Assembly: GCA_004431415.1 (NCBI GenBank) | Contig: QPMI01000684.1 | Coordinates: 1 to 64,000, forward strand | Direction: 5' to 3' | DNA length: 64,000 nt | From: Cyanophora paradoxa CCMP329 | Taxonomy: Eukaryota; Plantae; Glaucophyta | Shown here: piece by piece, positions 9,101-33,100 of the stretch | Numbering within the stretch: position 1 is the stretch's first letter | Layout of the letters: each line of letters begins with the position of its first letter | Made by a program: the position numbers and the translations under genes | Notes under the pieces: model-generated | The model's input: only the letters and a program-made list of their open reading frames with translations | Databases searched by the model: none | What the model was told of the DNA's origin: nothing

Positions 9101-12100
9101 CGCTCGCCACGGCCGTGGGGGGGCGATTAAGGCAGGGATCGGGCTCGGGAGGCGCTGCGAAGCGACGGGACCCGTCAGCGGTCGTGCGTGCGTCTGTTTC
9201 GACGAACACAATGCGAAACAAAGCGGGCGCACGGGGCTTGAGCTCGAAGGCGGCGCTCTGGTTGCGGACGCCGGCGAGGGCGACCTCAACGCGGTACCGG
9301 CCCGGCGCCAGCTGCCCGGGGACCGCCCAGTCGACACTCTCCTCGACCACACCCCGTGCAATTACCTTCGCGCGCCCAGTGATTATGAGCGGATGCAGAT
9401 CTGGACGTTTATCCGACGTGGAATTGTATCATACCTCGACGAGGGCGCTCGATTCCGCAGCGACGAGAGCGACGTCCGCGCCGGCAGCGCCGTCGGCGTC
9501 CTCCCACGCGATCCCCGACGCCCGCCACGTGATTCTGACGCGAGCGTCAGATTAAGAAGCTTCAGCGCGCATTGCACCTTGAATTGAACTCGAATTTCGG
9601 CAATCTCGCACCGAAACTGCTGGCCCGGGAGGAGGACGGGGACGGGGCCGACGTCGAGGCGGGGCCGGGCGGGGTTGGCGACTGCGAAGGACCGGCTGGT
9701 GCTGCTCAGCGCCCCGCCCCCGACCGCCACCTCCACCGAGTACTCGCCCGCCGGCACCTCCGGCCCCACCGTGTACGCGTAGCTCCCCGTATTCGGCGCC
9801 GCCTCCGCGATTGTCTAGCCCCGCAAACTCAGGAGGAACCCGCGGCCGGCGATTTTCGCGTGGTGATTTCGCACCCTGAGGCGGCCGGCGGAGTCGACGA
9901 GGCGAATGGAGGCGGCGAGGGCGGCCACATTGGCGAAGTCCCAGCGGATGGGCACCCGGGCGCCGACCGAGTAGCCCGTGCGCCCGTCGGGCAGCCGAAC
10001 CACCAGGTACGCTGCCGGCACCTGCCGCAAATATCAAACCAAGGCAGTGCGCGCCTCGCGTGAGCGGGCGCCGCGCTCCGCGAAAATCGCTACTAGCCCT
10101 CGCTGAAGGCGCCCACGTCCTCGAAATAGCCACCACTGCCCGCGAAAAAGCCTACAGCTACCGCCCCGCGCTCCGTCCTCTCCGCGAAAAGCCCTATTCG
10201 ATACCGGCCGCCCTACTGCCAATCGCTAAAATCGCCGCCTTCCTTGAATCAAGCCCAGGCCAGGGCTCCCCCCACGGTAAAAATGCCGACGGTCCGGTAG
10301 GGTCCGAAAGTACGTATACGAATCCGGAGGCGCACCTCGAGGAGGACCTCGGTGGAGGCGGAGCGGACGGGCCGGCCGGCCGCCTGCGCGCTGATCTCGA
10401 AGAAGAAGAGGCCGGTGCCCAGCGAGGGTGCCGGCGTGAATGTGAAGCTTCCCGAGTTCTCCCGCACGCACACCTGCCCGCGGGCCCGCCGCCCGCCCGG
10501 TCACGCGAGTTCGAGCGCTAGCCCTAGGCTGTTCGAATTCGGCGTGCTCGGCTTCTCACCGGCATCGGCTTTCCGACGGCAACGTTCGTGATGGTGACCT
10601 GTACCATCGCGCTCCGCGGCACGCCGGCGCTCGCCCAGCGGATCGTGTACGGCCGCCCCACGTACAGCTTCGGCTGCTCGACGGTGCCCAGCAGCGGCGC
10701 CGGCGCACGAAACACGAAGCCCGCTGCGGAGGAACGTCGACTCAGCAAAAAAGCAATCGCAGTCCAGCTGTAGGCCTAGGGCCTCCGAATCAGAACGCAC
10801 GCTCGCAGGACCCGCCGATGCAGAATGGGTCCGTCTGCCCGACCACAGCGTCGGACGGGATCTCGGCCTGCGCGTGCACGAGGGCGCTCGCGCTCGGTTG
10901 GGTTGCAGAAGAAAGGAAAGAAGAGGGAGGCGCCTGGAGAACGTAGAGGCCGGCCTTGAGTGAGTCGGGCAGGCGCCAGATGAAGTCGCCGAAGAGGGTG
11001 CGGGCCGCCCCGGGGCCCGGGCCGCTGGCGGGCGCGAGGAGGCTGCGACGGCGGCGGACCTCGACGGTGGCGTTGCCGCCGGAGGCCGAGAGGCGGAGGA
11101 GGGGGGCGACGGGGGCGGCGGGGGAGGCGTCGGGGAAGCGGAGGAGGGAGAGGCGGGCGAGGGAAGTCGCCGCCCCCGGCGTCGGGTTCGACGAGGCCAC
11201 CGTCTGCCCGGGACCGAAGGCCTCGTGAGCAAATTAAACGGCATCGAGCAGAGCCGGAGAAGGCGCGCGCACCAGCGGGCGCTCCTCGCCGGGCTGCCAG
11301 GAGGACTCGGCCGTCGGCCCCTCGACCCAGACGCTGTACGGCGCGACCGTGAACGCGTCGGACTCGGCCGAGGCCGAGGCGCCCCCGGCGGAGCTCGAGG
11401 CGACGGTGAGGCGGAGAAAGAGGGGCGCGGCGGCGGCGACGTCGACGTCGACGGTCCACACGAGGGATCCCGAGGAGGTCGACCGCGTCCCGTTGGCGAC
11501 ACGCTGCGCCGGGACTGGAAGTGAGCCGGAGCGGAGCGGAGCGAGGCACCGGGCGGAAGACGAAGATCGCGAGGGCGGCGGACCTGGACGAAGGAGCCGG
11601 CGGAGGCGTCGAGCAGGTCGACCGCGACGGCGTGCGGGGGCGGCAGGCCCCGCGTCGTCCACTCCAGCCGCAGCGCCGCCCCCGCCAGCACCGGCCCGCC
11701 GGCCGCGAGCGCCGGCGCCGAGAGGGCGACGGCGGGGGCGACGGTCTCGAGGACGCGGGCCGACTCGCCGGCGACGACGCTGAAGAGCTCGCTCTCCAGG
11801 AGCAGCGGCCCCGCGGCGCGGCCCGAGAGGGACACGACGACCTGGTAGAGGCCGGGCGGGCTGAAGCGGGGCAGCGCCGCGAGGCAGGCCCCGCCGTTTG
11901 CGCCGCTGCAGACCTCCACGGGGCCCATGGAGCCGTCCACGGGGAACGCGGTGACGGAGGCGGAGTCAAACAGGGCGGCGTCGGAGGCCCAGGAGGCGCG
12001 GATCGGCCCGCCGGCCACCAGCACCGTCCCCGCCGTCGGGTACAGCACCTGCGCCGGCAGGTCCGCCGCCCTCGGGGCCGGGAAGTAGGGCGCCGTGGCG

Positions 12101-15100
12101 CGCATGTTGGCGAGGGCGGGCGGGTAGGAGGGCAGGCGGCCCGAGGCCCAGCCGGAGAGGCCGCCGGGGCCGAGGACGTGGAGGTCCCCCTGGTAGAGGA
12201 AGGCGGCGCGGGCGCCCGGCGCGGGGCCGGCGCCGGCGGGGGCGAGGCGCGTCCACGAGGCGAGGGCGAGGTCGTAGACGAAGAGGGCGGAGGGGTCGAC
12301 GGGCGCCTCCGCGGGGCCCACGCCCCCCGTCACGAACACCTGCCCCGCCCGCGCTTCAGCAGGCTGCAGAGGCTTCCGAACGCACCCGTGAGCTGTTTTC
12401 GCGCCTGGGTGCCGGCGGAGGAGACCTGCAGGGCGGCGAAGGCGCGCGGGGAGGGCGGCTCGCCGGCCGCAGCCCGGAGCGCCTCCGCCGCCCGCGACGG
12501 GCGCGCCAGCCCCTCCGCGTCCGCCCGCACTCTGAAGCTGCGGGGCGGGGGGGGCAGATCGAACCGAATGAGCGGAGGCGGCGGGCCCGATCGCGAGGCA
12601 CGCGCGGCGGCGGTCGCTGGCGGACAGGTCGTTAAAGTAGCGAGCGCTGCCGCTCTCCGAGCCAGAGCGGGAGACGCCGCCAAAGGTGTAGAAGAACGGG
12701 GCTCCGGGGCGCTGCGCCGAGGAGGCGGCCCCCGCACGGGCCGGGGCCGTGAAGGGCGCGGCGGCGGCGGCCCGCGTCCACGCGAGGGAGGCGAGGTCGA
12801 GCAGCCAGACGTCCGAGAGCGCCCCGCCCTCCCCGCCCTCCCCGCCCCTGCGAGCCCCGGGTTGGAGGCACGCTTTCTTTAAGCTTCGAGCACCGACTCA
12901 ATTGCGAGGGGCGCACGCGAGGAGGAGGGCGGTGCCGCTGAGGGGCACGAGCGTGGCGCCGGAGCGCGGGGCGGGCGCGTCGCCCGTCACGTTCAGCACC
13001 GCCCAGGACGCACCCAGCGAGTCGTACACGCGGAGCGCGCTGGAGCCCGCGGGGACACCCCCAAAGACTGCGGCGCGCGCGTGCAGATACATTTACGTCA
13101 GCCGAATATGCGAAATGATGCAATGCATATGGGAGGCGGGCGGGGGCATGCACCGAAGACGAAGGGCTCGAGGCAGGCGTACGCGGGGGGCCCGGGGGCC
13201 TGCGCGCCCCGGCCGGTCTCCGGCTCGGGCTCGGGCGCCGGCTCCGGGACGGGGTCGCCCCAGGCCCCCCGCTGGAGGTCGAAGGCGCGGGCGACGGGGC
13301 GGCCGCCCCCGCCGGCGGCGAAGGCGAGCACGGCGGGGCTGAAGGCGCAGGCGTGCTCGTAGGGGGCCTCCCCCGCCAGCACCCGCGTCCACACCCCCGC
13401 CGCCCCGGCCCCCGCCCCCGGGTTCACAGCCCTGCCAGGCGCCGTCGGGAGGGGCAGCGAGGGCGCCGAGCTCTCGATTTCCATAGTTTTCTCAGCGCAC
13501 TCGTCGGTGCCGTCGAGGGTGACGCCGTGGATGAGGCCCGCGGAGGGCGCCCCGTCCTCCACCGCCTCCCACAGCTTGATCGCCGCCTGCAGTGAAGTTT
13601 CGCCGACTCGGTCGTCCACCGAGTCGAAGGCGCAGAACCCATGCCATAGAAGAGCGCACCAGCATTGCGGGAGGGCCGTAGCCGAGGCTGACGGCGACCT
13701 GACTCGAGCGTGTTGCCTGCTGCCCGCCACCGCTTTGGAGCAGCCTCCGGCCGGTAGCGGGTGTGGAGGCGGCCGCACGCTCGGCGAGGGCGGCGGGGCG
13801 GGCGAGCCCGGCGACCTCGCCGACTCGGTCGAGGAGCTGGTTGAGGCCGACCGAGGCGACGGGGGCGCGCACGCTCGCCCGCACGGCCTCGGCCTCCCCG
13901 CACGAGGCGGCGAGGGGCCCGCGCTCCTCGGGGCGCGCCTGGCGGAGGAGGCACGTGCGCTGCTCGGAGGCGGCGCCGCCGCACCCGAAGTCGCGGGGCG
14001 GGCCCGCGGGGGCCCCCAGCGCGAACATACGGAAGCTCGAGAACGCGACCTGCCACCCCGCACGCAAGTGCATGCGTGAGCAAGAGGGTGGACCGAATTC
14101 GAGGGGGTTGGGGGCGGGGGCCGGGGCGGGGGCGGGCCCATCCGCGGGGCCGGGCAGTGCCGGCGGTGGCGAGGGTGAGGTTGAGCAGGCCGCACTCGAG
14201 CGCCTCCCCGAGCCGCCCCGACGCCCCCGCCGCCTCCCCCGCATTCATCGACGCGTTTGCGCCCGCCCGCCACTCTACCAGCTCCTGCGAAATCCGCCGT
14301 GGTTCATGCACATGCCCGAAGATAGGAATGTCGGATGGGAGGTATTCCCACCCGATTGGGCACCCGCGCAGTACTGCGCGGGGCCGGCTCCCTGTGCTGG
14401 AGCAGCTGTAGATGCAGGCTGGTGTATTCACTGTGTACCCGGAAGACTACTGACTCTGTACCCCTAAGACAGGTAGAGGCAGGCCAGCGTAGGCTACCGA
14501 GAGGTAAGCCTACAGGAAGAGAGACTATGCTAAGCCACTCAGGCTACGTCAGGCACCAACTAGCTCTAGTCACTAAGTCACCGCAAGGCCAGGGAATCGA
14601 GCCAGGCGACAACTCCTCTTCCGCTGACGTCGCGTCCGCGCGACGTAGCAAGTCAAACCGTGACTCTCGTCGGCATAACCGCAAGAGGGCGTCCCCAACT
14701 CCGCCGATGGGTGCACCGCTCGAGGGCACCGACAGGCCCCAAGACGAGGAACCTGAGCCACAGCCCGAGGACAGGAATGCAGACAGCTGCAGGCCAGGTA
14801 GAAGGCCAGGTAGCTGTAGATCGATCCAGTCCAGGTCGTACGCTGGGCATGGCTGGTGGGGGGCAAATGCGTGCATGCGGGAAAGCTCGAAAGAGAAAAG
14901 CATAAAAACTCGAAAGGTGTAAACGCTGGCCCAAACTCACTCCAAACGGCGAGGGCCGCTGGAGAGTGGCACGGATGGGAAGTTTCACCGCCTCGGGAAG
15001 AAACCAGCGAGGAGGTATTCGGGCCACCCATCAAGCCCAACGAAAGGACAGGGCACGTCCAGGTGCCCCTACTCGCAAGCGCCCAGTCCCCCCAAGAGAC

Positions 15101-18100
15101 TCGCACGCGCCCAGCAGGCCAACACCTGGACACTCTCCACGAGCGCCGGGCCCATGTCCCAGAAAAGTGAACGAAAGACCCAGATGGCGCCCGCGAACGG
15201 TCCCCCAACCGAATCGCGTCCCACCTCGCAAGTCAGGGTTGAGGCAAAGCTGGCAAAGAAATCTGCCCTGCGTCCGTCTCTTCTCATCTCTAGCGTCGCC
15301 CTCGGCGTCCCACACAGGAACCCTCGGCGCCGACGTATGGGGCAAGGTATAGATTTGGTTCGGGACGTTTGGTTGGGAGTAGGGTCTGCTGAGGCTCGTA
15401 GGAGGTCCGTTTCGCACGTCAAGAAGACGGGATTTGCGACTGCACATGCAGGCTTCCGATCCACAGCCAGCTGCAGCGTGCAGCTGCGTCGAGCGGAATA
15501 TTTGAATCCGAGCTCAGACGGCGTTGGCGCAGCTGATGTGGATTTATGAAGCGTGCAGTCGACGTCGATGTGAGCGGCGACCTTGTATGCACTTGCACGT
15601 GCGTCTCGAGCTCGAGCTCGCGACCAGGTGCACGCGATAAAGGTACGAGCCCTTGAGCCGCACATCATCGAAGAGTAGAAATGCTTCGACGATCCCGTGA
15701 CTGCGTTGGCGCTCCTGTCGAGGTCGCGCAGCTTGCAGTGCAGGGTCCAATCCGCGCGGCTCCCGGTTCTGATCGCTGGGACCACAGGGTGCACAGCTCA
15801 GCAGCTGCACCCTCGTGGTTGGATCACGAGGCCGACGGGCGAGTTGCCGAGCTCAACGCCTCAGCTGATCGCGGGCGAGCAGCCCTTCGCGACTGTCGGT
15901 GGGAGCATGCAAGGTTGGAGCTCGTGAAGCATACGCCAGGCCGTCAAGCACGCGCTACGGCGTGATCATGAGGGCTGCAGTGTACGCGTGTACGTAGAGC
16001 CGCGGCGCGGGATTCCCTGGAGGAGGTCCGGGTCCCTTGGCGGACGTACATCAGTGTACGCTGGTACTGGCGCTGTGTGTGGCCTGGGGCGAGAGATGGG
16101 GCGAGGACCCGAGACCGAGCCCTCGCGTTCGCGACGTGCGTGACATCGCAGCGCTCAGCTGCTGGCGATGAAGCCAGGTGTCGACGTCGACGCTCCAGCT
16201 AGACGCGGCCGTCAATCGAAGGCGCGCGTGCTGGCCGCGAATCCCATCAGTCGTTCCCTCGGCCTGGTCTTCCTGGGATCCGGCCGCAGCCAGGCTCGTT
16301 GGCGAGCTTGGCGGGTCATGATCACGGGAAGGGGTTCTGCAGCGATCCGCGAGACTGCATGTTCGCGGTGCCGAGACCCTCGGATTTGCGACCGATTCGC
16401 CAGCCTTCGCCGTGGGCTCGTTTCGATCGCATCCCAATACCAGGCGATCAGGCGAAGCTGACGAACGGCGAATCCTTCAGAGACTCAGATCTCTTGATCG
16501 GGGATCCGAATTCGTGTTCTGTGCGTAGCCGGACCGCGACACGGCGTGCAGTCGGCTGCTGAGATCCGATTCCGATCCTTAGGAGGCCGCATCGGTGAGT
16601 AGTGCGAGCGAGTGCACTGGCCGTAGCTGGGCTCTCAAGCTCTGTCGAAACAGCACTTGCCGGTCCGTTCCGGACACGGTCACTGGCTGTGCACGTAACA
16701 ACAGGGCCTGAGGGCCATCAGCCCAGTAGCATCGCCACCGATGGGTTTCCGAGGCGGAATGTGGTTCGCCAACGGCGAGACCTGGATCCCGGCGAGCCGC
16801 CGCGTGAGGAGACCTCAAGGCGGTTGGCTAGGTTCGCTCGCTTGTGCTCGATCAGCCTGCAGACGGCAGCGCGCGCTGGGGCGTACTGCTCCACAGCAGG
16901 TCTAGGCGCGACGTCGACTGCATGCTCGAGTCTGATCATGATCCCGACTCCTCTTCCGCTGAAGAGGGGAAGTCGGGGCGTGGCAGGCATACGCCGATCG
17001 AGGAGGGGCTCAGGCGTCGGGCCAAGAGGCAGCCTTCGGCTCGAGCGCTTGTGCGCGTACTCCTCTTCCGCTGAAGAGCGGAAGCCGTAGCACGGCAAAC
17101 TGCCTCCGATGCCACTCCCTCTTCGGTTAAGCACCGTCCCCGGTGCTCCACCGTACGCGTCTTCCGCGAAAATTTGGGCACGCTGAGGCCGCTGGGCCCG
17201 GGATCCGTGATTGGATCGGGACAGCATGGCCGTGGTGAAGAAATTCGCGAGTGTGGGTGGAAAGAACGGAGAGGCGTGATCGTACACGACCGTATCCGTC
17301 TTTCTTTCGTTGTATTCCATGGCGTCCCGGGCCGCTTTGCTCTCGATTCGGGCTCAATCGAGCTCGAGGGGCAAGCGTGAGCCGCGGGGCCAGAGCGAGG
17401 TTGAATGGATGCTGGCTTCGATTTGAATTGAGTTGTGGGCAACTGAGCAATTGCGTCGGCCGGCCACGATTGTGCCGGTCGCGAGTCAATCGCACTGCAG
17501 TGCTCGCCGTTCGAATTTCGCGATTCGATCGGACGCCAGTCGTGTCGAGCACGAGGGCATCGAGCCTCGGAGCTTCGAGTCTCGAGCGGTCGTCGATCAG
17601 CTCAAGGCCTGGGCCGAGCTTCCGAAACACGATTTTGCATATATAGCGCTCGGCTGTGTATGCTCGTGTCTGTTGGCCCGTGTTGCCGCTTTTCGCGGTT
17701 TTTAGGCCAGGCGCCGGGGCGCCATGCCAGCACCCAGATTTATGGGAGCGGCCTCAGTGAATGAAGCTGGTGACGGTGGGTGCGCCACTGCCGGGAATAA
17801 GATCCCGGGTCGCCACCGCCCAGCGCGAAACGAATTTGACAGCTATGTCGAACTCGTTCGCTCGCAGGAGCGCCAGCTGCATGCAGCCGGGCCCGCGTGA
17901 CTTGGTACGTGCAAACGTCCGATGGTCCGGGTTGCGGGGCAGAATTTGAGAAAATCCGCGCCGCTGCTCGGGACGAGAGCCCGGCCGGCGGGTCGCCAGA
18001 GAAAATCGACGACTTTCGCCATGCTGGGCCCTCGCGAAATTTCGCGAGCCGAGAGGTACGAAATCGGCCGTGCGTGCGCGGTCCGACGGTCTGGCCTTCT

Positions 18101-21100
18101 CGAGCGGGCCGCGTACGCGTAGCCTACATCTCGGTTCCGAGCCGCGCGCGGCGTCGGGGCGGAATCGCGAGATCGAGGTCAACCGTCGGACTCGGGTGAG
18201 TCGCGAGAGCCGTGACCGCTTTAGTAAGCGTCAGAACCAGGCTCAGCGGCTGGTCTGAGGCTGAGGATGATGCATATGCTTGGCCGAAGGGCCGTGCAAT
18301 GGCCGGGCCACTTGGCATGGCCACGCACACGTGGGCGCGAAATTAAATTGCCGCACTCTGGTGCTGCAAACTTTTCGTGGCGTCGCGAAGTGATTCGCAT
18401 GCACAGATCTAGAGGGCCGGGAAACGTCCGGCGCGAAGATTGTGCACGCGGGCGCCCTCACGTCCGCTGGCGTGCGCCGTGACGGCCTCGCCACCGCAGC
18501 AGCCGGCCACGGGCGTGCACTGCGGCCGCCGGGCACAAGTGCGTGTGCAGGGCGCGGCTGCGCATGCCGTGGTATTGATGGCTGGGCGCCAGCCGCCGTA
18601 CGTAGTGTAGCAGCACCACAGGGATCGGCAGGTGGGCGCCGCGGCGTGCAACCGACGCGATTGGTTCCCAGCTGCAGGAGCGGGACCGGTAGCGGCCGGT
18701 TGCAGGAGCCGTGCTCGTGCATACGAGCGTCAATATCGTGCCGACGATATCATGCACGATCGCAAGCGTTCCCTTAGCGGACCGGGGGCCGGGCCCCGGT
18801 GCTCTCGAGAGAACTGACGATAGAGCTCTCGCTCGCTGTCTCGCAGTGGGCCGTGGCGGCTTTTGAGAGAGCAGACGATGAAGCTCAGCGGCTTTTGCTC
18901 GCTGTCTCTCGTTGGCCGTGGCGGGTGTTCCGGAGTGTGAAGCCGGCAGATTCCACCAGCTAGGTGGGAACGGCTTTCCGAAAATTGGATACCGTACGCG
19001 TGGCTTGTGCACGGGCCAGCCACTAGGGCTCGCTGTCGCGCAGATCGAGAACGGGCTGGGGATCATCGGATCCGGCGCCGCGCCCACGGTCCCGAATCAT
19101 TGAATTCCGAATTCGAATTGCGATGCTTTCGAATTTGGGTGCCGCAGTGCGGTCGACAGGTTCGCTTCGCTCGGTAGCGAATTACGATTTCTGCAGCTCA
19201 TGCAGTCTTCCCTGCCTCATCCTCTCTCCCACCGCGTTTTAGCGGGAGGTCGAGGCATGAGCGTGCCGCAAGGCGGGTGGGGCTGAAGGCCGCGTGCGCA
19301 GGCTTGGCGGCGAGCGGCCGTGCCGAGCCCTGGGCCTGCCGCCGTGCGGTCGCGTGTAAATTTTGCGGGCCGGTCTGCGAGCCCTGAAGGCTGCGCTACG
19401 GTGCGAAAAATGCCTGCAGCCAGCACCAGCTGCAGCATCGCCGGGTTTGGCGAAGTGGTGCACAGGTTCCGGCTCAGGGCGGCGGCAATGCTCTTTTCGA
19501 GCTAGCGCTGCCCTTGGCGGCGCAAATCGCGACCGTACATTCGATTGCTGGATCGGCGCTCTGTAGCACGGCGCTCCATTACAGCGCCTCATCAGCGCTC
19601 GCCGAGCGGCGTGCCGGCGTTGGCAGAGAGAGCCGGGCGCTGTTCAGCGCAGCCGATCGTCCGTTCGCGATCGCGAGTCGACGTCGTTTCGCGAGTCGGT
19701 CCGGGGCCGCGGCCGTAACAGCGAGGAGCCCGAGCCACGGGGCCGTGTGCGCAGCCTCTTTGGGAAAGCTACCGCATAAGGGCTCAGGCTTCGAATTTTT
19801 CGCTGCGCTCAGCTCGGCTGCTCAGCGGCTGCATCCGATATCCGGTCGCGATATCGATGCATATGCTGTACATGTGGGCCTGGCCGGGGCTGAGACCCGC
19901 GCCTGCAACACACACGTGCACGTGCACGCGGTTTATGCAAGGTAGGGCTAGCCGTTTAGTTTTGTTTAACGGTTGCAGCCTTTATTCCCGCTGGCCATGG
20001 TGGCTGCGGCTTGAATATTTGTGGCGCTCGCGATCGGTGTCCGTGTCCACGGCCACGCGATTGCACGTGCAAAGACTTCACGGGGCATACTGCCGTGAGA
20101 AGCCAGGACGTCGTGCGCGACTCGACAAGCGGCTCTGGGGCCCGCTGTACGTTGTAGCGCTGGCCCACGCGTGGGAGCCCGACATTCGATTCCAGTCGCT
20201 AGCTTGACGCTCGCAATTGGCCTCGGTCTCCCTGGGACTCGGGAGGACGAGTCGAGCCCGTTGCGAGCTTCGATATCGATTCGCGTTTGGGCCGGGGGCC
20301 ACAATCCGCGTTCTCGTAGGGGCGAGGCCCTAATTCACAGCTTTGCGACGTCCAGCGATCGAGCGTGATCGTGGATTCGCGACGCGGATATTCGCGGGGC
20401 CTAGGCTCGCCGCGAATTTCGCTGGGCTCGTGGCCGTGCCGGTTTTCGCAGGGCAGGCCGGTGCGGCCCGGTGGGGCTGGAATTCCGATGCGGGTCGCCA
20501 CAGGCGCTTACGAGGAGGCCCTGGGGCGAGAGGCTCGCGAGGGGACATGCCAGGCGAGGGCTGAGGGCGGCCTGAAATTGCGACTACTCCGATCTCAGGC
20601 CTCGCAATTGCGCGGGCTCGAATGTGACGGGCCGTCCGTCAGATACGGGCTGGCCGGGCACTCCGAGGCTCGGAATATTCGATCGCGAATCTTTAGTCCG
20701 GTCCCGATTATCGGATTTTCGCGATATCGAACGGGCACGGCTTCCGCAGTGCCAGCCCGGCGGTGGGGGCGGTCTAGATCTGGCAGAAGGGAGCCTGAGC
20801 TGCGAGCCCGGGCAACCTCAGACCTCAAAAGGGCCGAGGGCCGCCTGCGATCGCAGCTGCTCCAAACCCGATCGCGAAGCTCGCGATCATCGGATAGTCG
20901 TTCCTTGCGATCCAAATTCGCAGGCCGGCACCCTGAATCGGGGCAACGATTGCAAATTGACGGATCTCGATTATCGGATTCTCGCGGGTCATTGGACCCC
21001 ATATGCATGGCCAGGCACGTGCACGGCAGCCACAGGCGGGCTGGAGCGCGTGCGGCGGGCTCTGGGTTTAAATCCGAGCGAGCTAGCGTAACTTTGATTG

Positions 21101-24100
21101 TGAGCTCGAGCTCGCCTTGGCCAGAGGCGGCTCGAGACGACTTCGAAGCGCAGTGCCCGAGCTCCGAGGCTCGTTCACTGGTCGGGCTCGGAATTGGCTT
21201 AATTGAACCGTTCAACGGTGGGCAACGAGACCACCGTGGCACGATGTCGGCGATCGCGAGGCGCCCGCGCATCGGGGCGCCAGGCGCATTGGACGCTTCG
21301 GCGCGGGGCGCGGGTGCCGCTGTCAGCTTCGGCCGCGGGCCCTGCCAGGCTGAGGGCAGGGCCTCCGGGACGCTGCCGCCAGCTGTTCGCAGGCAATTGC
21401 AAGCGCCGATCGTAGGCTGAGCTCGTCCTCTGGATTCGAGGCCAGGGACCGCAGCTATTTGCAGAGGACTTCCAGGGCTCCGGGCCCAGCGGCAAGCCGC
21501 GGCCGGCCGTGGACTGCGGGGCCCCGGGCCGAGGGCGAGGCCGGGCGGCCGTTATTTAACGGGGCCGTATACGCATCGGCTTGAATGTTTACAGGCGTTC
21601 GCATGGCCGTGCGATCACGATCTGCGCCCACCAGCTGCCGCGGTGCGGGTGGGGGGGCAGAGCCAATATGCCATGATGCCTGGGGCCGGGCCGGGTGCCT
21701 CCGCCTCTGAGAGAGGGCGAGACTCAACGGGCTCAACGGCTCCGAGGCTCGAGTTCGAGGTCACGAGGCAGGCGGTCGCGACGTCGACGTCGACAGCGGG
21801 CCGGCGCCGTGCCGCGTGCACGGCGCTGTCGTAAGCGTGTACGTACACGTGACCAGCTTCGATCTCGAGCCGAGGGCGATCCCACGTTCACGGATCGGAG
21901 GCCGAGGCCGGGTTGGAACTTCGGAATTCAAAGTTCGATTTCAAGGCCCGCGATTTTGCGATCGGTCACCCGGGTCGGCGTAGGGCTGTGACCCGGCTTT
22001 GCAGCGCTCCTTGCTCGCAGCGGCGCGAGAGACGCTGTTCTCAGGCCTCTGGAGGCTCGTAGCGGCGCGAGATACAGGGCCGAGGCCTGGGGGCCGCAGG
22101 CCGATATCGATCGTGAGGCACGGCATTGGACGCGCGCGCGGGAACTCGAAGGATCCCGACGTCGCAGCACGCGAGATCAGCCATGGGCTCGATCCGTGCG
22201 CTGTGATAAGCGCCCTTGGTCCGGGCGTGCTGCGCAGCTTCGCAATCGCTCCTCTGACCATGGGGCCGGGGCCCGGCCGGCTTGAACGGCAGCTCGGCGA
22301 TGCGAACGGCAGCTCGGCGGTCGCGACCCTTGACCGCGAAGGCGAGGGCAACCGCGAGGGCGAGTCGCTGAGCGTAATTCGATGGGGCCCGGCGGCCGAG
22401 ACCGCGACCGACGGGTGTCGGCGGCCGAGACCGGAACGGCTTCGAATTTGTGCCTGGCGAAGCTCCAGACTCAGTTCATAAATTGAAACCGGGCCTTGGC
22501 ACTGCCAGTCGCTCGCAGGCCTAGGGCTCAGCGGCTGTGGAGCCTCGGGGGCCTAGGCTGGGCAGCTCTGAGCCGTACGCGTGGTACAGTGCACGTGCAC
22601 GTGCTCGTGCACGTGACTTCCGGCCCTCAGCTCGCGGCTGAGCTCGAGCTGTACCCGCTGGCCCATGGCACGTGCACGCAGCGGCAACGTTAACGGCGGG
22701 AGCCGAACTCGCAGTGCCAGCAGGTCCTGATCATGAGAGCCGAAATCGACTCGTAACCGGATCCAGGGCTCGGAAGCGAGCTCGAGCTCGATCGCGAGGC
22801 GCCGGGCCGGGCGGGCCGCCGGGCGTTTGAGCTGGCACAGTGGCGGCTTGCTCCGAGGCTTAGTCAACCGGGGCCCAGAGCGTCGACGTCTCGCTCGAAA
22901 AGCAAGCGTGAGCTTCGGGGTCCGGCCCGGCAGATCCGGGTCTCGGCCTGACAGCTTCCAGTCCGGATCGGAGAGCCTCGGGATCCGGAGTTGAGAGCTT
23001 GCATCGAGCAGGCCATGGCCAGGCCAGGTGCTGGCTCGCAGTGAGAGGTGCGCCGCGCGGCGCCCTCAATCTTGGGCCAGGCCCGACTGCGCATGCGGGG
23101 CGTCTTGCGCTTTTTGCGACAGCTGTAGGCAGAGAGCCTCAGCAACTCGGGTCCCTTTCGAGCCTGGGGCTCGTGACGGCGTGATTACGGTTTGAGCCGC
23201 GGGCCGGAGCTCGCCTCTCGAGCTCGAATCCGCAGTTGATATCGCCGTCGGCGCTAGCGCTAGCGCTAGGCTCGAGCTCAAGCTCTCGAGGACCATGGGG
23301 CCCATGCTAGGTAGCCAGGTGAACCTCGAGCTCGGGGCCGCATGGGCCGGCTGTGCGTGAAACGCGCCACTCTCCGAGGCTCGACGAGCCTCAGAAGTGC
23401 AGGCCGGGCCTCTAGCTCCGGGCCTGGTCGGGTAGCGGCTCGAATTCGAGCATCAAGGCCTCAGGATGCCGACCGGCGCTCCCGAATGCAGCACGCAGTG
23501 CTGCGGGAAGACCGTCGGACAGGCCTAGGGGCCGGTTGCGAGGCCTGGCGGCCCTGATCCGAGCTTGAAGCTCGTGCGGGGTAAATTTCCAATTTCGCAG
23601 TCAAGGCCCCGAAGGAGCTTGCTGCGAAACCTAAACGCTCAGCCTGGCTCTCGATCGCGACTGCAGTCGAGCAGCCTGGCAGCTTCGAGGCAGGCAGTCG
23701 CAATCGCGATGGGGTTCGCCGGTCGTGCGTGGGCCCGGCATCAGGGCATCAGCTCTGGCCCTCTCGAGCGTCTGGCGCGCACCCTTGAGCTCGAGCTCTG
23801 AGCTCGAGGCTAGGGGCTCTAGCCGCCGGTCGCAAAGCCGGCTGGTAGCTCGATATGCGGTTCAGCACTAGCGGATTCCAAAGCGGCGATAGCGGCCGGA
23901 TTGGAGCCGGATGCCAGTTGCAATCAGCCGGGGCCGACATTAGAGCTTAGCTCTGCGGCCCAAATTACAGCTGGAGCCGGAAGCCGGAAGTGGGCCCAAA
24001 TTACAGCTGGCCGCTGGGCGTTCGAGGCGGCCGATGCCGCCCGACCCAGAGCTTACTTAGTGGAACTCAGTGTCCGGTGCCATGTGCATGGCGCCGGCCA

Positions 24101-27100
24101 TGGGCTGGCCTGGCACGGCAGACCCCGGAACTCCGGCTTCGAATTCCACCCGATGCGGATATCGATCGGGAGTCAGCCGGTCCTCGGGATCGGCCGGCGA
24201 GCGCCAGTGGCGCGTGTTGTACTCGTCCCAGGGCTGCCACCTCAGGGCAGGGCCGCGGGGAAAGATCTCGTCAGGGTGCAGGGCCGCGGCTCGGCGAACC
24301 CTCGAGCGCCCCACCGACGAGGTCCAGTCTCTGAGCGCTTTGGGACTTCCTCGGCAAGCGCGAGGGGAAAGTCGTTGGCGTCACAGGCGTCCGGCGGGCG
24401 GGCCCACCAGGCGGCGACTCGTCGCCGGCCTTGCCCGGAGCGTCCCCGGCCGGGGTCGTCGGGCATCCCCTCGTCAGAGGGAATTTCGCGCTCCTCAGCG
24501 GCGGGGGCCCGGCCGGGCCCGGCTCTCGTTGCTTCGGAGCTTGAGGCGGCGGGGCTGGCCCAGGCACCGTCGGCGCAAAGCGTTCTGGCCACAGGGCGGC
24601 CTGCGGCCGCGCCTGCTTGCACGTGGCGGGGGCCTTGGCCTTAAGCTTCGCGAACCCCGCAGACGCGGCGAGCTTGGCGAGCTCAGCGGCTCGCGGGGGA
24701 GGCGTTGCGAGGCGCGTTTGAATTCGATTTTACAGCTCGAGCTCGTGATCTTGCATATGCATGATCAGATGCATGATCATGATCAGCAGCTCGCGTACTG
24801 TGCACGTGCATACGCATGCGGTACTGCCGCGGCTTGCCATCGATATCATGATCATGGCGTCACACCCCTTCTTGCTAGCACCGTCCGCGGTGCTCCGCGA
24901 GAGAAGGTGTCACGGTGTGCCAGGTACCGGCTAGCTGCAGCTGCCGCAAGCTTGAGCTCGAGGCAGACGGCTAGCGCATAGCTAGTGCACAGCGGAATGC
25001 GAAAGATAAAGCGGCTCGAGCCCCTGAGGGCCGCGCTATCGATATCGATATCGCTTCGCGGCTCAAGCTCTTGATCATGAAGTGAGCTCGAGACCGCGTC
25101 TCATAGCTAGGCCTTCAGCTTATAATTGATCAAGCTTGAGCCTTGCGTCGACGTTCGATGTGTGTGCCGCTGGCGCCGAGTGCATCACCGTCACCGCGGC
25201 GTTGCGTCGGATCCGAGGCCATGGCCAGCGTGCAGGCGCTCATGATCATGATCAAGAGTTGAGGCCGAGAGAAGCATCAGCCGAGGGAAGGCTAATGCTC
25301 TCAAGCTCGAGATCTTGGCCATGGCGGGGCAAGAGGGCCCTGCCTGCAGGCAAGGCAGCAGGTGGGTCCGCTCTGCAGTCGGTGCCCTTGAGCTCCAGGT
25401 CTTGAGGGCATTCTCAGGTCAAGCGACGGCGTAAAGCCACGCTAGTCCATGAGATAATGTGCCTCACTCGAGATCCGAGGCCGTCGTGGTCCACAGCAGC
25501 GGCGAGCAAGCTCGGCTGCGGCGATTCTGGAGACAGCTCGGGCGCGCACGCCTCAGCCATCGATCCGATCGCTCTTCCTCTCGCCCGGAAGGAACTCGGG
25601 CGCGCGGCCTCAGTTCTCAATCCGGTCCACTCGCCGGAAGGAACTCGGGCGCGCGGCCTCAGTTCTCGATCCGGTCCACTCGAGCTTGTCCAGCACGATC
25701 GCAGCAGCCGTAGAGGGCTGGCGTCGCGGCGAGTGACTGGCGACCGACCGGGAATAGCACCCTCGGGCTCGCACGGCAGCTCGCGCAGGCGGCGTCGACG
25801 AATCCGACCGGGAATAGCACCCTCGGGTATTCGCGCGCGGGCCTGGCTTCCACAGGACTAAGTTCTGGCCGTCGTAACCGCGCTGAGCCAGAACCTCAGC
25901 CCGCGGCCGTGGGCGCCAGGCTAAGCCACGCGGCTGCCCCCACGTCTCCTCCAGATCCGCTGAAGGATCTGCGGGCGAGCGGCTCGCCTGGCTCTCTATA
26001 GCTGGCCAGCGACCGCCCGCGCTTTGTGGGGCGCGCGCGGCGCAGGCGAGGTCCGAGCCCGTACGCGTCCAGTGCCAGGATCAAATCTGCCGACCCCAGC
26101 AGATCAAATCCCAAGGGCGAGGGCCAGGCGCGCACCCCGAGGGCCGTGCGCGTGCGCTGCGCCAGCACAGGCCGTGAAGAACTCCGGCGCGAAGCGCTGG
26201 GCTCGGAGTGCAAGGCTAGCGAGAGCCAGCACAGCCGATCGACCAGACTCATGCACGCCTCGGTCCAGGGCGAGGCTCGCCAGTCGCCGGTCGTCGTAAA
26301 GGTCTTCTTTTATCTGCTCGAGGCCGTACGCGCGGCGCTGCGCGGCGGGGCGCGCGTACGGGCATGGGCGTCGAGGTTGTCCCTCGGGGATCTGGACAAG
26401 ATCTGCGGCGTCCGTCGGCGAGGGCGACGGGAGGGCGCGTCCGACCGCATTTATCGGTTCTCCAGAGCTAGTTCTACGTTTCCGGTGCGCTGACGGAGAG
26501 CCTGGCGGCTCGCTGAGGCTGATCGCTGTGTGCGTATCGATCGCACGCCGATCCGGGCCCGCCGGTGCGCGGGGGTCGCCGATCGGCACTGAAACGATGT
26601 TTCTAGAGCTACTAGCGATGCGTGCGCATCGCTGATGGTCGCCGAAGATGACGGGCTGATGCTGTCGGAGGCTGCCCACGGGCCCAGTTCCGTGAGCAGT
26701 GGCGCCTGTCGGATGGGAGGTATTCCCACCCGATTGGGCACCCGCGCAGTACTGCGCGGGGCCGGCTCCCTGTGCTGGAGCAGCTGTAGATGCAGGCTGG
26801 TGTATTCACTGTGTACCCGGAAGACTACTGACTCTGTACCCCTAAGACAGGTAGAGGCAGGCCAGCGTAGGCTACCGAGAGGTAAGCCTACAGGAAGAGA
26901 GACTATGCTAAGCCACTCAGGCTACGTCAGGCACCAACTAGCTCTAGTCACTAAGTCACCGCAAGGCCAGGGAATCGAGCCAGGCGACAAGGAACCAGAT
27001 CTAGACCGGGCGCGCGCACCCCCGTCGCATCGGCGGCGAGCACCGAGACGAGCGCCCAGCGGCCGCCCGCGCTCCCGAACTGCATCCGCAGCGAGCGCGC

Positions 27101-30100
27101 CGGCCCAGCTGCGCGGCGATCGTTGTCAGCGTCCAGCTGCGAAACCGGATCTGATCATGAATTCGGAGGCGCACAGGCGGCATCCCATCGCGCGGGGCTG
27201 TTCCAGTCGACGGTCACGTTGGCGAGCGCGTCGAAGACGCCGCTCGGGTCCGGCCCCGATGTCACCGCCGACTGCGGGAAATTAAACTCAAGATCAGCCG
27301 CTGGCCATGGCCAAGCGATAAATCACGATCGTGATCAAATCACGGGAGCCGTTGAGCGGCGCGCGCCTCGATCTGGCCGCGGCGCGGCTGCTCGACGCTG
27401 ACGCCGTCGACGACGCACTGCAGGCGCCCCGCGACGAGCGTCGACCCGTCCGCCGCCGCCGCCCGCAGCAGCACCGCACGCGGCGCCGGCGTCGCCGCCG
27501 GCCGCCCGCCGCCGCGCCGGCGCCGGCGGCCGTGTCGCGGTCGCGCACGGTGAACTCGGGCCCGGGCTCCGTGCAGCCCGAGGGCGACTCCTCGTCCTCC
27601 AGGAGGCACGCCACGAGGGCGTACTTGCCCCCGGCCGCGAAGGGCGGGGCGATCAGCGGAATGCGCGCCGAGTGCCGCCCGTTGCTGCTCCCGCTCGGGC
27701 TGCTCACGGCGATCGACTGGACGACGCGGTGATTCGCGGCGCTCACAACGCTGATCTGCAAGCGGGGCGTCTCCATTGCGAAACACAAACGCGTGCCTAC
27801 ACCAGAAGGGCGCGCACCTGGACGCTGCTGGCGAAGCCGCCGACCATGTAGCCCACCGTGAGAGAGGAGCCGAGCTTCGCCTCCGCCGCGTCGACGTCTC
27901 CTACGAGGCGGATCGTGCCTGGACGATTGCCAATGTACAATTAAAACGGCGAATCGAACTCGATTCAAGCGAATCGGAACACGAGCGCACTCTGGCCGAT
28001 GTCGAGGAGGGCCATGTGGGCGCCGGCGACTACGTAGAACTGCCGCGGGGCCGGCCCGCCCCGCAGCACGACGGGCCCCAAGGCGTTCGAGGCGAGGCCC
28101 GGCAGCACCGCCGCGAGCTCCAGCAGCGTGCTCCGCTCCACCTTCCCCTCCGCCAGCGCCAGCAGGCCCAGTCGCGGCCCGGCCGGCTCGGAGCCGGCCA
28201 GGACCCGCCGCCGCGCTCCGCCCTTGTCGCCGTCGCGATCGATGGCGACGACGGCGTAGGAGCGGCTGACGAGGAGCAGGTCGGAGACGGCGCCGCCGCC
28301 GGGGAGCGCGGGGTCGCGCTCCTGCGGGACCTGCTCCCGGCCCGGCTCCGACGGGTCCGGGCGCAGCGGAAGGCGGAGGAGGCGGCCGGCGTCGGTCACG
28401 AGCACCGCGAAGCGCTCGTCGGGGCCACAGCGAGCGAGCGTGGGCACTCGCCCCGCGCCCGCACAACCACCGTCTCCACGCCGCCCGTCGCGTCCACCGC
28501 GTGCACGTGCACCGACCCGCTCTCCGCGTTGCACCGCGTGCCGCCCGCCTCCGCCCGTGCATCCGACTGCAGGAACACGGCCCGCGTTGGGCGGGCCATC
28601 GGGGCCGTGCCCACGAGTACGATGGGCTTGGCGCTGGAGGCCGGGAGGGCGAGGCGCTGGGCGGCGAGGCCGCCGGGCGGAGGAGGACGCGGTAGACGGC
28701 GCCGGAGCGCGTGCCTACGAAGACGGCGGCGGCATCGGCCCCGGCCCCGGCCCGGCGACGAGGGCGCAGGCGGAGGGCCCCGGCAGGTCGGCGGCGCTCA
28801 GCGTGCGGTTCGCGCCGCTGCTCGCGTTCATCGCCACGAATGTCACGTCGCCTGCAGAATTAGACGTGAGCGGCCGCGAAAATCGCGGTATCCGCCAGCG
28901 CTATAGTTGCGGCGCACCTTCGGCGCCGTTCATGGCGAAGAAGAGGGTCTCGGCGCCGTCTGAGAGGGCGCAGGCGGCCTCGCCGGTGCGGGAGACGAGG
29001 ACGGACCGGACGCCGGCGGCGCCGGCGGTGCCATTTGAATTTGCGCCCGGGGCGCCCACCGCGAGCAGGCGGGCGACGACGGGCTTCCGCGTCGCTGCGA
29101 GCCCGAGCCCGAGGCCGAGGCCGGAGAAGGCCGACCCGGCCCCAGCGCTCAGGAACGCGAAGGCCGCCCCGGGGCCCGCCGTCCCGTTCGGGTCGAGCGC
29201 GAGCGACGCGCGGCCCGCGGGCTGCGTGATGGCTGCGGCGCGCAGGGTCAGATCCAGATCTAGTCCGCCTTCATATTATTATTTCGTCCTGTGGTGTGCT
29301 CTCACTCGGGATGGGTACGGCGTCGGTGGAGGCGGTGAGGCGCGGGTTGGTGGCGGTGCTCCCGTCGATCTCCAGAGTCAGGCTGTACACCGCCTCGATG
29401 TGACCCCGCGAAACCATCTCCAGCGTCTGCGGAAATTTATGATCAGTTTGCGCAAAATACTGCAAAGTGAAGTGTAGGACAATCTGCTTCTGTCCGCTTG
29501 GCACCTTTCTCGCGGCGGCGAGGGCGCCGGTGGAGGAGCCGAAGTCGACGACAGCCGTCTCCTGCGCGAACTGCAGCAGCGCGCGGGCCGGCCGCCCGGT
29601 CCGCGCCTGCACCGACATCGCCGAGGGGAGGTGGCCCGTCACGTCCCGGATCGCCTCCGCCACCCTCGAGAATCGCTCTGCGCGAAGGCGCCTTCGGCTT
29701 TTGCTGCGCCGCAAATTCGCGGGCCTGAAAGCAGTGTGTGCGGCGGACCGATCTCGGGGTCGTAAGTGAGTCTCGCGAGAACATTCTTGTCAAGCGGCGC
29801 CCCTGCGACCCCGCGAAAACGCGCGTGAAGAAACGGCTTCGTTGTCAGGCAATGCGCCGTTCGCGAGATCACGCACCGAGGAAGGGATAGGCGACGTTCG
29901 CGCGGGCCTGCAGCTCGGAACCCTGCAGGTAGACCTCGTAGATGCCGACGAGCGTGGGCGACGTCCCTGGGAGCGATCGCAGCAGCGAGTAGAACGTCTG
30001 ATCGACGGATTAGTTAACGTTGCTCGGAAATAAAAACCGGAAAAGAAGCCAATTGCAAGGCGCGCGGACAACGGAGTTTTGAGCATAGGAGGAAAGGAAC

Positions 30101-33100
30101 GTGAAGCTAATGGTGGCTTCGGCCTTTCTGCTGCGGACGCTCGCGCCCCCCAACGAGCCGGAGCCCCGCTGCGCCAGGCGCCGCGCTGGGGATGCAGACG
30201 CAGAGCCGCCCTCCGCGACCGGCTCGTCCTTGAGGAGGACGGGGGCGATCGGGTAGGACGTGTAAGCCGCGATCCTCGAGACGAGGGCGGCACCATCAGG
30301 GACGACGCTCGGGTTGTAGGCGACAACCTCCACGACGCTCAGCAGCATCGGCGTCGGCGTTGGAGCCGGCGCCGTCGTGAAGGGCGCGGTCGCGGCGCGG
30401 GGCGACTCGCCGGCTGCGTTGATGACGGAGGCGCTGCAGACGTACACCGTACCGGCGCTCAGGCCGGTCACGTCGATGGTGGCCGCCTCGTCCCCGGGCA
30501 GGGCCGGGACGGCACCGGACCACGCGGCCGTCCCGGCGCCCGCGAGGACGCAGCTCGCTGAGACGCCCGTGATCCAGGACCCGCCATTGTAGCCAAAGGT
30601 GGCCTTCAGCAGCGCCTGGTCCCGCCGGATGGACGAGACGGTCACGGCGGACGGGGCCGCCGGCGCCTCCGCCGCCGTGAGAAACGGCGCCGATGCGTTC
30701 GCGCGGGATGTCCCCTGCGCGTTGCTGGAGTTTGCGGAGCAGAAGTAGGTCGCGTTGGGGAGGAGCCCGGTCGCCAGGAAGCTCCAGGTGGAGGTGCCGG
30801 CGGCCACTGGGCTGGACCCCGTCCAGACGAGCGGGCCGCTGCCTCCGCTGCCGCTCGTGCAGGAGGCGGCGACCGACGTGATCCAGGCCCCGCCGCTGTA
30901 GCCCAAGACGATCCGGACAGTCGCGTTTCTCGGATGGATGGCGGAGATGACGACGCTTGCCGGCGGTGCAGGCGGTTCCGCGCCCGTCGAGAATGGCTCC
31001 GATGCGTTTGAGGACGAGTTGCCGCCCGAGTTGCGCAGCACGACCGAGCAGGTGTAGCTGGTGTTTGGCGTCATGCCGTAGACGCCGAAGGTCACGGATG
31101 TCGCGACCTCGGGCGCGGCCACTGATCCGTAGCCCGACCCTTCGCTGGCGCCGGCGGCGGCCACTGCAGGAGCGCAGCGTGCCGAGGCCGACGTGATCCA
31201 CCCGCCACCGTTGCCTCCAAAAAAGGCGGTCACGTTCGCGGAGCGCGCCGTCACGTCGAACATTGAGACGGTGCGGGGCGGGTCAGGCGGCTCGGCAGTC
31301 GTCACAAAGGCGGGCGACGCAAAGTTCTGCGACGTGCCGACCCGCGTCGTTGTGTTTGCGGAGCAGACGTACGTCGTATTTGGTGTCAACCCCACGACAT
31401 CGAACGTTGCCGAAGTTGCGTCTGGCGCGGAGGGGGCCGAGGCCGACCAGACTTCTGCTGACGTGTTGCCTGCGGGCGCACAGCTCGCCGCGGCCGAGAC
31501 AATGAGGTCTCCGCCAGCAAAGCCGTAGGAGACGAGGATGGTGGCGTTTCGGGGCCGGACGCCCGTCGCGGCAACGGAGGGCGCCGCGGGTGGCTCGCGA
31601 AGCATGAGAAACGGCGCCGATGCGGCGTTCGAAGACGTCGTCCCGCTGCTCGTCGCGTTCGCCCGGCAGACGTACGTCGTGTTCGGGACGAGGCCGACGG
31701 CGATCAGGACCGACCAGCCCTCGTTGGCGGAGGGCGTCGCGACAGCGCCCCAGTGAGAGGGGCCGCCGGATGCGGGGGCGCAGCTGACGGAGGCACGCGC
31801 GATGGCCACGTCGCCATTGTAGCGGTAGCGCACGAGGACGGTCGCGTTGCGGCTCTGCACGTCGTACACCAGCACCTCCGCCACGCCCGCCGCCGCTGAT
31901 GCCCCCGCCGGATGCGAGCCTGGAGGGGGCCGGATCGGGACGGGAAGCCGATTAGTAGCTGCGGCGGGGCAAGAGGTTTGCACCGTTGATGCGGACGGCA
32001 AACGACGTTGCTGCGGAAGAGCTGTTCAGGCCCCCGACAGCAAAACTGTCCGCCGAAGCTCAGCCCCATCAGAGGCATCCGAAACGAATAATGTTGGAGC
32101 CGCAATCGGGCGCACGTGGTGCAGGTGAAGGAATCGGATCCCGAGGCGGCATACCGCAGGCTGTAGGCAGGCCCGGAGACCGCCGCATTTAGCTCGCTCG
32201 CGACCAAGCCCCCGGCTGGTTGGAATTCAGGGATTCCGCTACAAGAACGTGCAAAGAATTGCACACTCGTAGGGTCGATGAAGAGGGGCCGGTAGCCGTC
32301 GCCCACCCAGAGGAGAAGGTCGCCGCACGCACCGAGCACCGCACCCGCCTCGGCTGTGATCGGCCCGAGCGTTGTCGTGAGCCCAGCGTTCCAGTGGCGG
32401 GCCGCCACGACGCCCGCCAGCGACGTGACTAGCCGCCATGTCTTTGTTCCCGGCGCCGCCAGGTCGATTTCGCTGCAGGATCCGGAGGCATTCTCAGCGA
32501 CAACACCCGGTCGTGCACGCGATCGCAAGCAATCGATCGCGAGCTCAAAGCGGCCCGTGCGCACTAAATCGATGTCGAAGGTGCACCGTCGCCCCATCCG
32601 ATAAACCACTTCGACGCGATGCGAGCGTGAGGGGCATGGAGGCCGAGGGAAACGGGCGACGAAACGTTGTCGAAAGCCCACCCTGCCGCCGCCGTCCACC
32701 TACAACCGAGCCCGAACAGGGGTTAGATCGCATCTTTTCCACTCTATTTGCCACGTTACCATGTAGACCCGCGCACCTCAGCAGGTCGCCGGTCGCGAGG
32801 GCGCTCCCGCCCGTGATCCACAGGACTCCGTTGTAGACGGTGCTCGCTGCGTGCGTGGCTGTCATCATCAAGCGACTTCGGCGAAGCAGTACCGGAAAAG
32901 CTTCGACTACGATTCTAGATCCGAAGAGATGCACCGTGCCCGTAGATAGGTACCGGCATTGCCGGGCCATCCACACGAGCGTCGAACGACACGGGAAATC
33001 TGCAGAACATGTCCTTGGCTGCCCCGTCGAAGCCACCTGTCTCCGACCGCAAAATTCAATCGATATCAGACTCGGACGTCCGGTTCGCGCGAAACTCACG

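Follow-up and report, generated by a model that had tools for sequence, protein, structure and literature searches.

The window analysed here is a 64-kb stretch of the Cyanophora paradoxa CCMP329 genome (contig QPMI01000684.1, positions 1 to 64,000), to which all positions refer unless a locus is named; it contains an intron-rich host gene, a long terminal repeat (LTR) retroelement lying within that gene, and an endogenous polinton-like virus. The interior of the LTR element is filled with chained short palindromes, and these are the product of a real, genome-wide and stereotyped insertion process in which a 3-nt unit X becomes X-rc(X)-X or X-C-rc(X)-G-X, where rc(X) is the reverse complement of X. 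The two products are referred to as 6-nt and 8-nt scars, and X-G-rc(X)-C-X serves as the linker-swapped control; the genome assembly is labelled G000 and individual loci carry L-numbers.

The element at 14329-26989 is a non-autonomous LTR retroelement with paired, identical LTRs of 283 nt each (TG...CA), a target duplication, no intact gag-pol and several copies; the copies in G000 (at least 15) are 73-100% identical over a 1-kb interior probe, and a long open reading frame (ORF) is found in none of them. It has ordered pieces in common with a coding gypsy-type element (L065). As the element was inserted with a 5-bp stagger, it is not itself the source of the 3-bp scars. Its copies are mosaic, with 99.7% identity to the window copy over one half and 97% over the other (14329-26989 versus L009/L010 and L001/L002), showing recombination between copies; two more distant non-coding families (L032-L040) share the LTR together with patches at 16080-16382, 16512-17308 and 25871-26707, which are possibly conserved cis elements.

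Table 1. Features of the window discussed in the text; expected counts are from Markov simulation.
Feature	Position	Strand	Remarks
Non-autonomous gypsy-derived LTR element	14329..26989	-	12.66 kb; no long ORF; at least 15 copies in G000; within intron-rich host gene; insertions were read on it
Scar-saturated interior	15450..25450	.	104 X-rc(X)-X and 25 X-C-rc(X)-G-X motif matches; 10.8% covered
LTR (3', judged by the polypurine tract)	14329..14611	-	TG...CA; identical to the other LTR; scar motifs absent in this copy
LTR (5')	26707..26989	-	
Target duplication AGGAA, 5 bp	14324..14328	+	Second copy at 26990-26994
Polypurine-tract-like run adjoining LTR	14612..14624	-	Would orient the element, judging from its sequence
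pol linker remnant, RNase H-integrase	24184..24392	-	70-75% amino acid identity to residues 1098-1168 of coding relative L065; length about 1:1; not reverse transcriptase
Second, weaker pol remnant	24543..24684	-	61% nucleotide identity to L065 6149-6290
Host gene region	1..14328	-	Same scars: 67 vs 16-21 expected; 8-nt form 9 vs about 2; mainly intronic by a crude splice model
Host gene region	26995..37350	-	29 vs 7-9 expected; long exon 30010-32025 scar-poor
Polymorphic 6-nt scar GTC-GAC-GTC	16180..16188	.	Most copies lack it
Polymorphic 6-nt scar TGT-ACA-TGT	19867..19875	.	Long allele in 2 copies, short in 11
Polymorphic 8-nt scar GAT-C-ATC-G-GAT	20885..20895	.	Long allele in 3, short in 7
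Polymorphic 6-nt scar CGG-CCG-CGG	21330..21338	.	Long allele in 2, short in 11
Polymorphic 6-nt scar TGC-GCA-TGC	23088..23096	.	Long allele in 5, short in 6

Form and Direction of the Insertions

Fifteen copies of the LTR element (13 whole and 2 interrupted; a third interrupted copy, near-identical to one of these, was omitted) were compared pairwise, and differences were kept only where 8 identical bases stood on either side. The comparison yielded 798 single substitutions, 320 clean indels and 1089 complex length changes; the clean indels peak in length at 1 nt (100), 6 nt (88), 8 nt (39) and 7 nt (16), and the complex changes likewise peak at 1, 6 and 8, the scar classification covering clean indels only. 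With duplicates merged, the 6-8-nt indels number 143, of which 101 fit the template X-a-rc(X)-b-X with a 3-nt X and optional linkers a and b (71 linkerless, 25 with C and G, 5 other), against 5 for a reversed, 1 for a direct and 22 for a complementary copy of X in the middle position; the last figure is likely explained by complement and reverse complement coinciding when X reads the same backwards. Permutation of the insertions among sites gives a mean of 1.6 fits and a maximum of 6 (1000 permutations), and with at most one mismatch the template accommodates 87 of the 88 6-nt indels. The original prediction, made from the window alone, had proposed alignment to an intact family member as a check, and the indels that fit the template are indeed insertions that repeat flanking bases in reverse complement.

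At scars the long allele is the singleton 36 times and the short allele twice (23 versus 10 at other indels), so that scars are insertions and not deletions; the 36 singleton scars accompany 343 singleton substitutions, a ratio of about one per ten. Both the C and the G linker are templated by the flank in just 4 of 26 cases, and 7-nt forms with one C or one G were seen 3 times, against about 84 expected by hand calculation if the two ends were independent. Among 359 same-length events there are no 3-nt micro-inversions, and 4-nt cases number 7 versus 10 for the reverse control; hairpins of the tyrosine-recombinase type, or with unfilled ends, predicted 3-nt micro-inversions and were rejected. 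Scar target sites lie in pre-existing palindromes slightly above background (32 of 79 versus 27%), and strong self-targeting to existing palindromes is not shown.

Density and Reality of the Palindromes

The five palindromic runs quoted in the prediction lie where it placed them, at 15605, 22589, 23251, 24752 and 25038. Perfect palindromes with arms of at least 4-5 nt exceed local order-1/2 Markov expectation 2-5-fold and order-3 expectation 1.6-3.7-fold (20-26 kb, 2-kb bins), and in most virus bins of the same size the ratio to order 1/2 is about 1 or lower. Within the saturated interior, 6-12 X-rc(X)-X matches are expected under Markov orders 1-4 (30 simulations per order; simulation maximum 18) and 0.4-0.9 for X-C-rc(X)-G-X, with observed counts as tabulated; the linker-swapped control matches once, and linkerless motifs with an X of 4 or 5 nt match once each. 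The palindrome excess is not reducible to low-order Markov composition, since both motifs stand far above all four orders. Exons, LTRs and virus genes are scar-poor, as had also been claimed: the LTR holds none in 283 nt, exon 30010-32025 has 6 of the 6-nt and none of the 8-nt form, and the viral ORF 41388-47426 has 1 and 0. Other copies of the LTR element do carry such insertions within their LTRs.

A basecalling artefact is excluded because independent short-read contigs hold the same sequence: contigs from 4 runs match single-copy, intron-rich stretches of 1-14400 with no differences over up to 6.9 kb, and the stretch is present in short-read contigs of 20 runs from 15 studies. The short-read contigs also show 6- and 8-nt indels at 16180, 19867, 20885, 21330 and 23088; no strain polymorphism was found in the single-copy gene across the short-read runs. 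By the same comparison, 1-nt indels in G/C runs are apparently assembly errors. The assembly is short by one base in G or C runs at 16721, 17199, 18416, 23333, 23588, 24395 and 24864, and frameshifts in this assembly are therefore to be treated with care.

Spread Through the Genome

Stretches of 10 kb each were taken at round coordinates of four large contigs, and are arbitrary rather than random. Eleven of them hold 606 6-nt motifs versus 91 expected and 92 8-nt motifs versus 12, and 21 of them hold 162 8-nt motifs versus 29 linker-swapped controls; enrichment is 7-8-fold in arbitrary stretches and introns alike, an intergenic stretch elsewhere is as saturated as the window interior, and one-linker motifs show no excess with C or with G genome-wide. 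Extrapolation gives several hundred thousand overlapping motif matches, or on the order of 10^5 events per genome. Under a crude, palindrome-blind splice model there are 6.5-8.1 6-nt motifs per kb in introns versus 2.5-4.3 in exons, and 0.8-1.4 versus 0.25 for the 8-nt form; this split is not proof of in-frame scars in proteins.

The process is also seen in other repeats. Within one DNA element, insertions of the same +6 and +8 kinds distinguish the units of a tandem array, and a coding LTR family of 38 copies holds 4 true scars versus 1489 substitutions; all 4 scars are private, and a single diverged copy accounts for 3, of which 2 fall in its ORF region. As scars are private in LTR copies and occur in the tandem array of a DNA element, the events are chromosomal and not tied to reverse transcription; as the 38-copy family is nearly scar-free, the process does not seek out repeats. 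Copies of this family (L124-L163) diverge by about 6%, and a segment of 73 nt immediately preceding the integrase ORF is present in some and absent from others. Loci L081-L087 (G000:C545, C272, C677) contain tandem arrays; the units measure 5-9 kb, and a DDE_Tnp_4 remnant and AGAGCCTTCTCAT inverted ends are present.

The CGCTA Family as Candidate Agent

Comparison of two paralogous stretches identified a 685-bp insertion with ends CGCTACAAGTT...AACTTGTAGCG and a CTG duplication, the paralogous site being empty. The CGCTA terminal pattern has 79 matches versus 29 for a control, and among 21 complete, non-redundant elements (74-1339 bp; ends CGCTA...TAGCG) the 3-bp target duplication is exact in 15. 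These are small elements with terminal inverted repeats (TIRs) that fall into several subfamilies (G000:C549 ~76541-77225, equal to L079 6542-7226; L196-L283); one is nested in its own copy (L218), and direct repeats of 8 and 9 bp flank two of the copies. Identity is 99-100% among four copies located at unrelated sites, which shows the family to have been mobile recently; young copies lie on G000:C416, C505 and C656. A blind scan for recurring 3-bp duplications in a 1.95-Mb sample returned the CGCTA terminus alone (14 of 22 pairs) and no second family with a 3-bp duplication; CGCTA loci had been deliberately included in the sample, which makes the scan a positive control. Initial TIR scans of 0.48-1.0 Mb had missed the family.

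Around 40 non-redundant CGCTA ends with full flanks, 48 8-nt scars lie within 0-199 nt and 22 at 380-579 nt (binomial p=0.0013, Wilcoxon 0.0017), while the corresponding counts are 82 versus 86 for 6-nt scars and 4 versus 6 for the linker-swapped control; an 8-nt scar directly abuts 3 of 60 ends. Such an excess is what local hopping would leave. A weak preference for C before and G after the site is common to element sites (43%) and scar sites (46-50%).

Proposed Mechanism and Alternatives

The scars are considered, with good confidence, to be excision footprints of cut-and-paste transposons that make a 3-bp duplication, with the 8-nt form left by the CACTA-like CGCTA family; taken by class, a CGCTA origin of the 8-nt scars is very likely and a transposon origin of the 6-nt scars is probable. 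Insertion would create X-element-X. On excision, the transposase would nick the 5' side of each end and the 3'-OH of the flank would attack the opposite strand, closing the flanks as hairpins; a host nuclease would then open these off-centre, so that one flank would carry a 3' tail of rc(X) and the other a tail of X. The left flank would thereby open to X-rc(X) and the lower strand of the right flank to rc(X)-X, and the tails would pair over 3 nt and be ligated to X-rc(X)-X. This product would result whatever the point of hairpin opening, which would explain the uniformity of the scars. If the nick falls one base inside an element starting with C, that first base would be kept in each hairpin loop and the joint would read X-C-rc(X)-G-X. 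Intermediates of 7 nt hardly occur, which makes it likely that two families, or else two concerted modes, gave rise to the two forms. A few elements hopping over a long time could leave many scars and few standing copies, repeated hits would build the palindrome chains, and selection likely keeps exons clean.

Several observations weigh against an origin by excision. Six of the 21 CGCTA elements have duplications of 0, 1, 1, 4, 8 or 9 bp, and a target preference for open DNA, common to elements and scars, could also explain the excess of 8-nt scars near their ends, although 6-nt scars show no such excess. The latter make up about 85% of motifs, and no source family was found for them. Transposase profiles PF02992, PF13960, PF13963, PF18759, PF06869, PF12940, PF10551, PF18758, PF20231, PF04827 and PF21789 have no match in G000, in searches that are weak given intron-split genes, and no transposase occurs in 132 ORFs beside unpaired CGCTA ends. 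A site filled in one copy and scarred in another was not seen, the sole paralogous site among the 21 elements being simply empty. No standing element with a 3-bp duplication occurs in the 15 and 38 LTR copies; this absence is expected, since by a hand estimate some 50-80 CGCTA ends genome-wide should place well below one standing copy in the 190 kb that the LTR copies span. The scar rate of the coding LTR family is low, and selection and youth account for this only partly. Plant CACTA footprints, as far as the accessible text of 10.64898/2026.08.24.746626 and PMC4423477 describes them, are 3-5 bp or heterogeneous, and less uniform than the fixed +6 and +8 seen here.

Three other explanations were weighed. 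A transposase, or a domesticated one, might act without a lasting insertion, through joining of element ends to a target with a 3-nt stagger, gap filling by a host polymerase (of X, or of X plus the element's first base), immediate hairpinning of the target ends and departure, which is the same chemistry with no standing donor. The very uniform products would suit this, as would 36 singleton scars with no standing 3-bp element in 15 copies and the lack of a 6-nt source family in 1.95 Mb; however, young standing CGCTA copies exist, 8-nt scars cluster round them, and the absence of standing copies from the LTR copies is expected anyway by the estimate above. It is regarded as improbable. Still less credence is given to a host nuclease and repair path without any transposon, in which breaks with 3-nt overhangs would be filled, capped as hairpins, sometimes after addition of a non-templated C, and rejoined. 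A deoxycytidyl transferase would add such a base, and the fixed C suits a C-adding polymerase; the spread of scars across all old non-coding DNA and the failure of the G000 searches to find a transposase fit as well. Independent C addition nevertheless predicts by hand calculation about 84 7-nt events for 71 6-nt and 25 8-nt ones, where 3 were seen; one-linker motifs have no C or G excess genome-wide, and both the clustering of 8-nt scars at CGCTA ends and their match to that family in C...G ends and 3-bp duplication would be left unexplained.

The original prediction had been correct in proposing insertion of inverted copies of adjacent bases, and the mechanisms that it attached to this, template switching or snap-back synthesis and a defence resembling repeat-induced point mutation (RIP) of silenced DNA, are not supported. 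Formally, a four-point template switch would give X-rc(X)-X, and such events, in the accessible portion of PMC7954356, add inverted copies of nearby sequence and mostly lengthen it; the ape events described there are rare (4017 in all), vary in fragment length (median 12 nt, median absolute deviation 4.5, maximum 128) and have no fixed linkers. Here, X is always 3 nt, with 4- and 5-nt versions essentially absent, the C and G linkers are not templated by the flank, 3-nt micro-inversions are lacking, and the insertions occur in introns of genes in addition to repeats; an origin by short-range switching during replication or by snap-back synthesis, whether or not as a defence on silenced DNA, is largely refuted and very unlikely. 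The defence idea further meets host introns and arbitrary gene-rich stretches as heavily loaded as repeats, scars in single-copy gene regions, and only 4 events in the 38-copy LTR family. RIP degrades repeats over time by substitutions in duplicated DNA; the process here shares the degradation of repeats over time, but it consists of insertions and is not confined to repeats.

pol Remnants and Other Mobile Elements

A motif scan and a tblastn comparison with 20 long ORFs from coding LTR elements yielded the RNase H-integrase linker as the sole protein remnant in the LTR element; in the coding relative, pol is laid out with reverse transcriptase (RT) at residues 458-617, RNase H at 687-812 and integrase at 1391-1555. 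An RT stretched 3-4-fold had been proposed for this interior, with TPDRYP and a PFGL-like site as landmarks. The linker remnant is of about equal length in both elements, TPDRYP at 24170 (- strand) lies just downstream of the remnant and far from RT, and exact PFGL was not found in six frames; this part of the prediction is not supported. Between anchors, a stretch of 8.9 kb stands in place of 2.0 kb in the integrase region of the relative; a gap-tolerant alignment of 15270-24183 to that region scores 1262, close to the 1175-1251 of 11 controls, and the scores do not demonstrate that the stretch is an expanded integrase.

Other mobile elements were considered as scar sources and rejected by their duplications: the window virus (6 bp; ACA...TGT ends in 7 of 8 paired copies), hAT elements (8 bp), a TATCC...GGATA element (6 bp) and a MITE, read as Tc1-like (TA). 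DDE_Tnp_4 and hAT matches could not be tied to scars. The TATCC...GGATA-ended elements, which we take to be IS3EU-like, lie at L025 4224-7800 (6-bp duplication) and G000:C102:24684-37825, the latter a 13-kb element carrying an inverted pair of ~350-bp tandem arrays. A lone Harbinger-type DDE gene, which has an intron and appears intact, lies at L079 7242-8318 (G000:C549); its upstream region is very scar-rich, and terminal repeats were not found for it. The endogenous polinton-like virus occupies 37360-64000 (ending at G000:C682:65279), has 39% GC, and matches a packaging ATPase, D5-type primase-helicase, rve integrase, patatin, S74 chaperone and endonuclease VII; its sister copies have ACA...TGT ends and 6-bp duplications, and the mismatch of the two flanks of the window copy hints at recombination between copies or misassembly.

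Implications

A compositional oddity thereby becomes a defined type of mutation whose rate and direction can be stated and for which there is a candidate agent. If footprint formation by excision is the cause, most short palindromes in introns and intergenic DNA would be departure marks, a dense record of transposition invisible in standing copies, and such jumping would be one of the main mutation sources of the genome. A broader synthesis is offered only tentatively and is, as a whole, rather unlikely: transposase hits would be a leading mutational force (one scar for about every ten substitutions, and on the order of 10^5 scars in each genome), X-C-rc(X)-G-X would read out CACTA-like cleavage (flank hairpin, nick one base inside), and X-rc(X)-X, made by a transposase with no standing element, would be the work of a mutator that writes palindromes across the genome and also lengthens proteins in frame by two residues at a time. 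The mechanism offers a testable prediction for CACTA-like transposase cleavage. Palindromic motifs here should not be taken for regulatory sites, and counts of X-rc(X)-X and its linker variants by length of X would be an easy handle for any genome.

Comparison with Known Systems

A description of the pattern was not found in the literature searched, which leaves out older plant footprint papers and most subscription papers; footprint figure panels and the Pack-CACTA and morning glory bioRxiv supplements may hold footprints of the X-rc(X)-X type. No paper directly on how a CACTA-like transposase cuts was found in the same literature, and the available portions of 10.1101/342816 and PMC8195511 give no footprint sequences. 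The words "palindrom" and "transposon" are absent from the main text of the C. paradoxa genome paper (PMC6704402, term search), and the accessible part of the methylome paper describes most repeats as methylated (PMC12344493). Statements below that cite PMC5499845, PMC5873905, PMC4561436, PMC4423477 or 10.64898/2026.08.24.746626 refer to the available portions of those sources, and likewise for the systems that they describe.

PIF/Harbinger elements (mPing) resemble the candidate in their 3-bp duplication, scar sites have a weak T-W-A tendency and DDE_Tnp_4 genes are present in G000; however, mPing excises precisely (PMC4561436), and Harbinger ends start with G and target TAA/TTA (PMC4423477), unlike the varied targets of CGCTA elements.

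The CACTA/EnSpm elements (En1, Tam1, Tpn1, Tdv1) share with the CGCTA family a variable 3-bp target duplication, C...G ends, non-autonomous copies and imprecise excision (PMC3193017; PMC4423477), and the CGCTA terminus CGCTACAAG has eight of its nine bases in common with the CACTACAAG of En1/Tpn1 (PMC3193017). The CGCTA elements carry G as their second base, so that their ends do not start CACT(A/G), the plant-type CACTACAAGAAAA is not above control in the genome (46 versus 78), and a Tnp2 transposase was not found in insensitive searches; the elements are for these reasons called CACTA-like only. Footprints of plant CACTA elements are reported as 3-5 bp (10.64898/2026.08.24.746626), and rice excisions are reported to leave a mixture of deletions and fillers (PMC4423477).

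The closest likeness in chemistry is to hAT (Ac/Ds, Hermes), Transib, RAG and Muta1, in which a hairpin is closed by the 3'-OH of the flank and opened by the host, and the repaired joint, frequently made at microhomology, carries a palindromic footprint (PMC5499845, PMC5873905, PMC4561436). Here too, an inverted copy of the flank stands at the joint, and the copied unit has the 3-nt length of the target duplication made by most of the CGCTA elements. The duplication is 3 bp here and 8 bp in hAT, with both copies whole in the scars; the loop base would be a fixed C derived from the element, or absent, whereas in Ac/Ds it is the complement of the flank base. The scars also differ from the footprints of all four systems in comprising one or two near-invariant products, present on the order of 10^5 times per genome.

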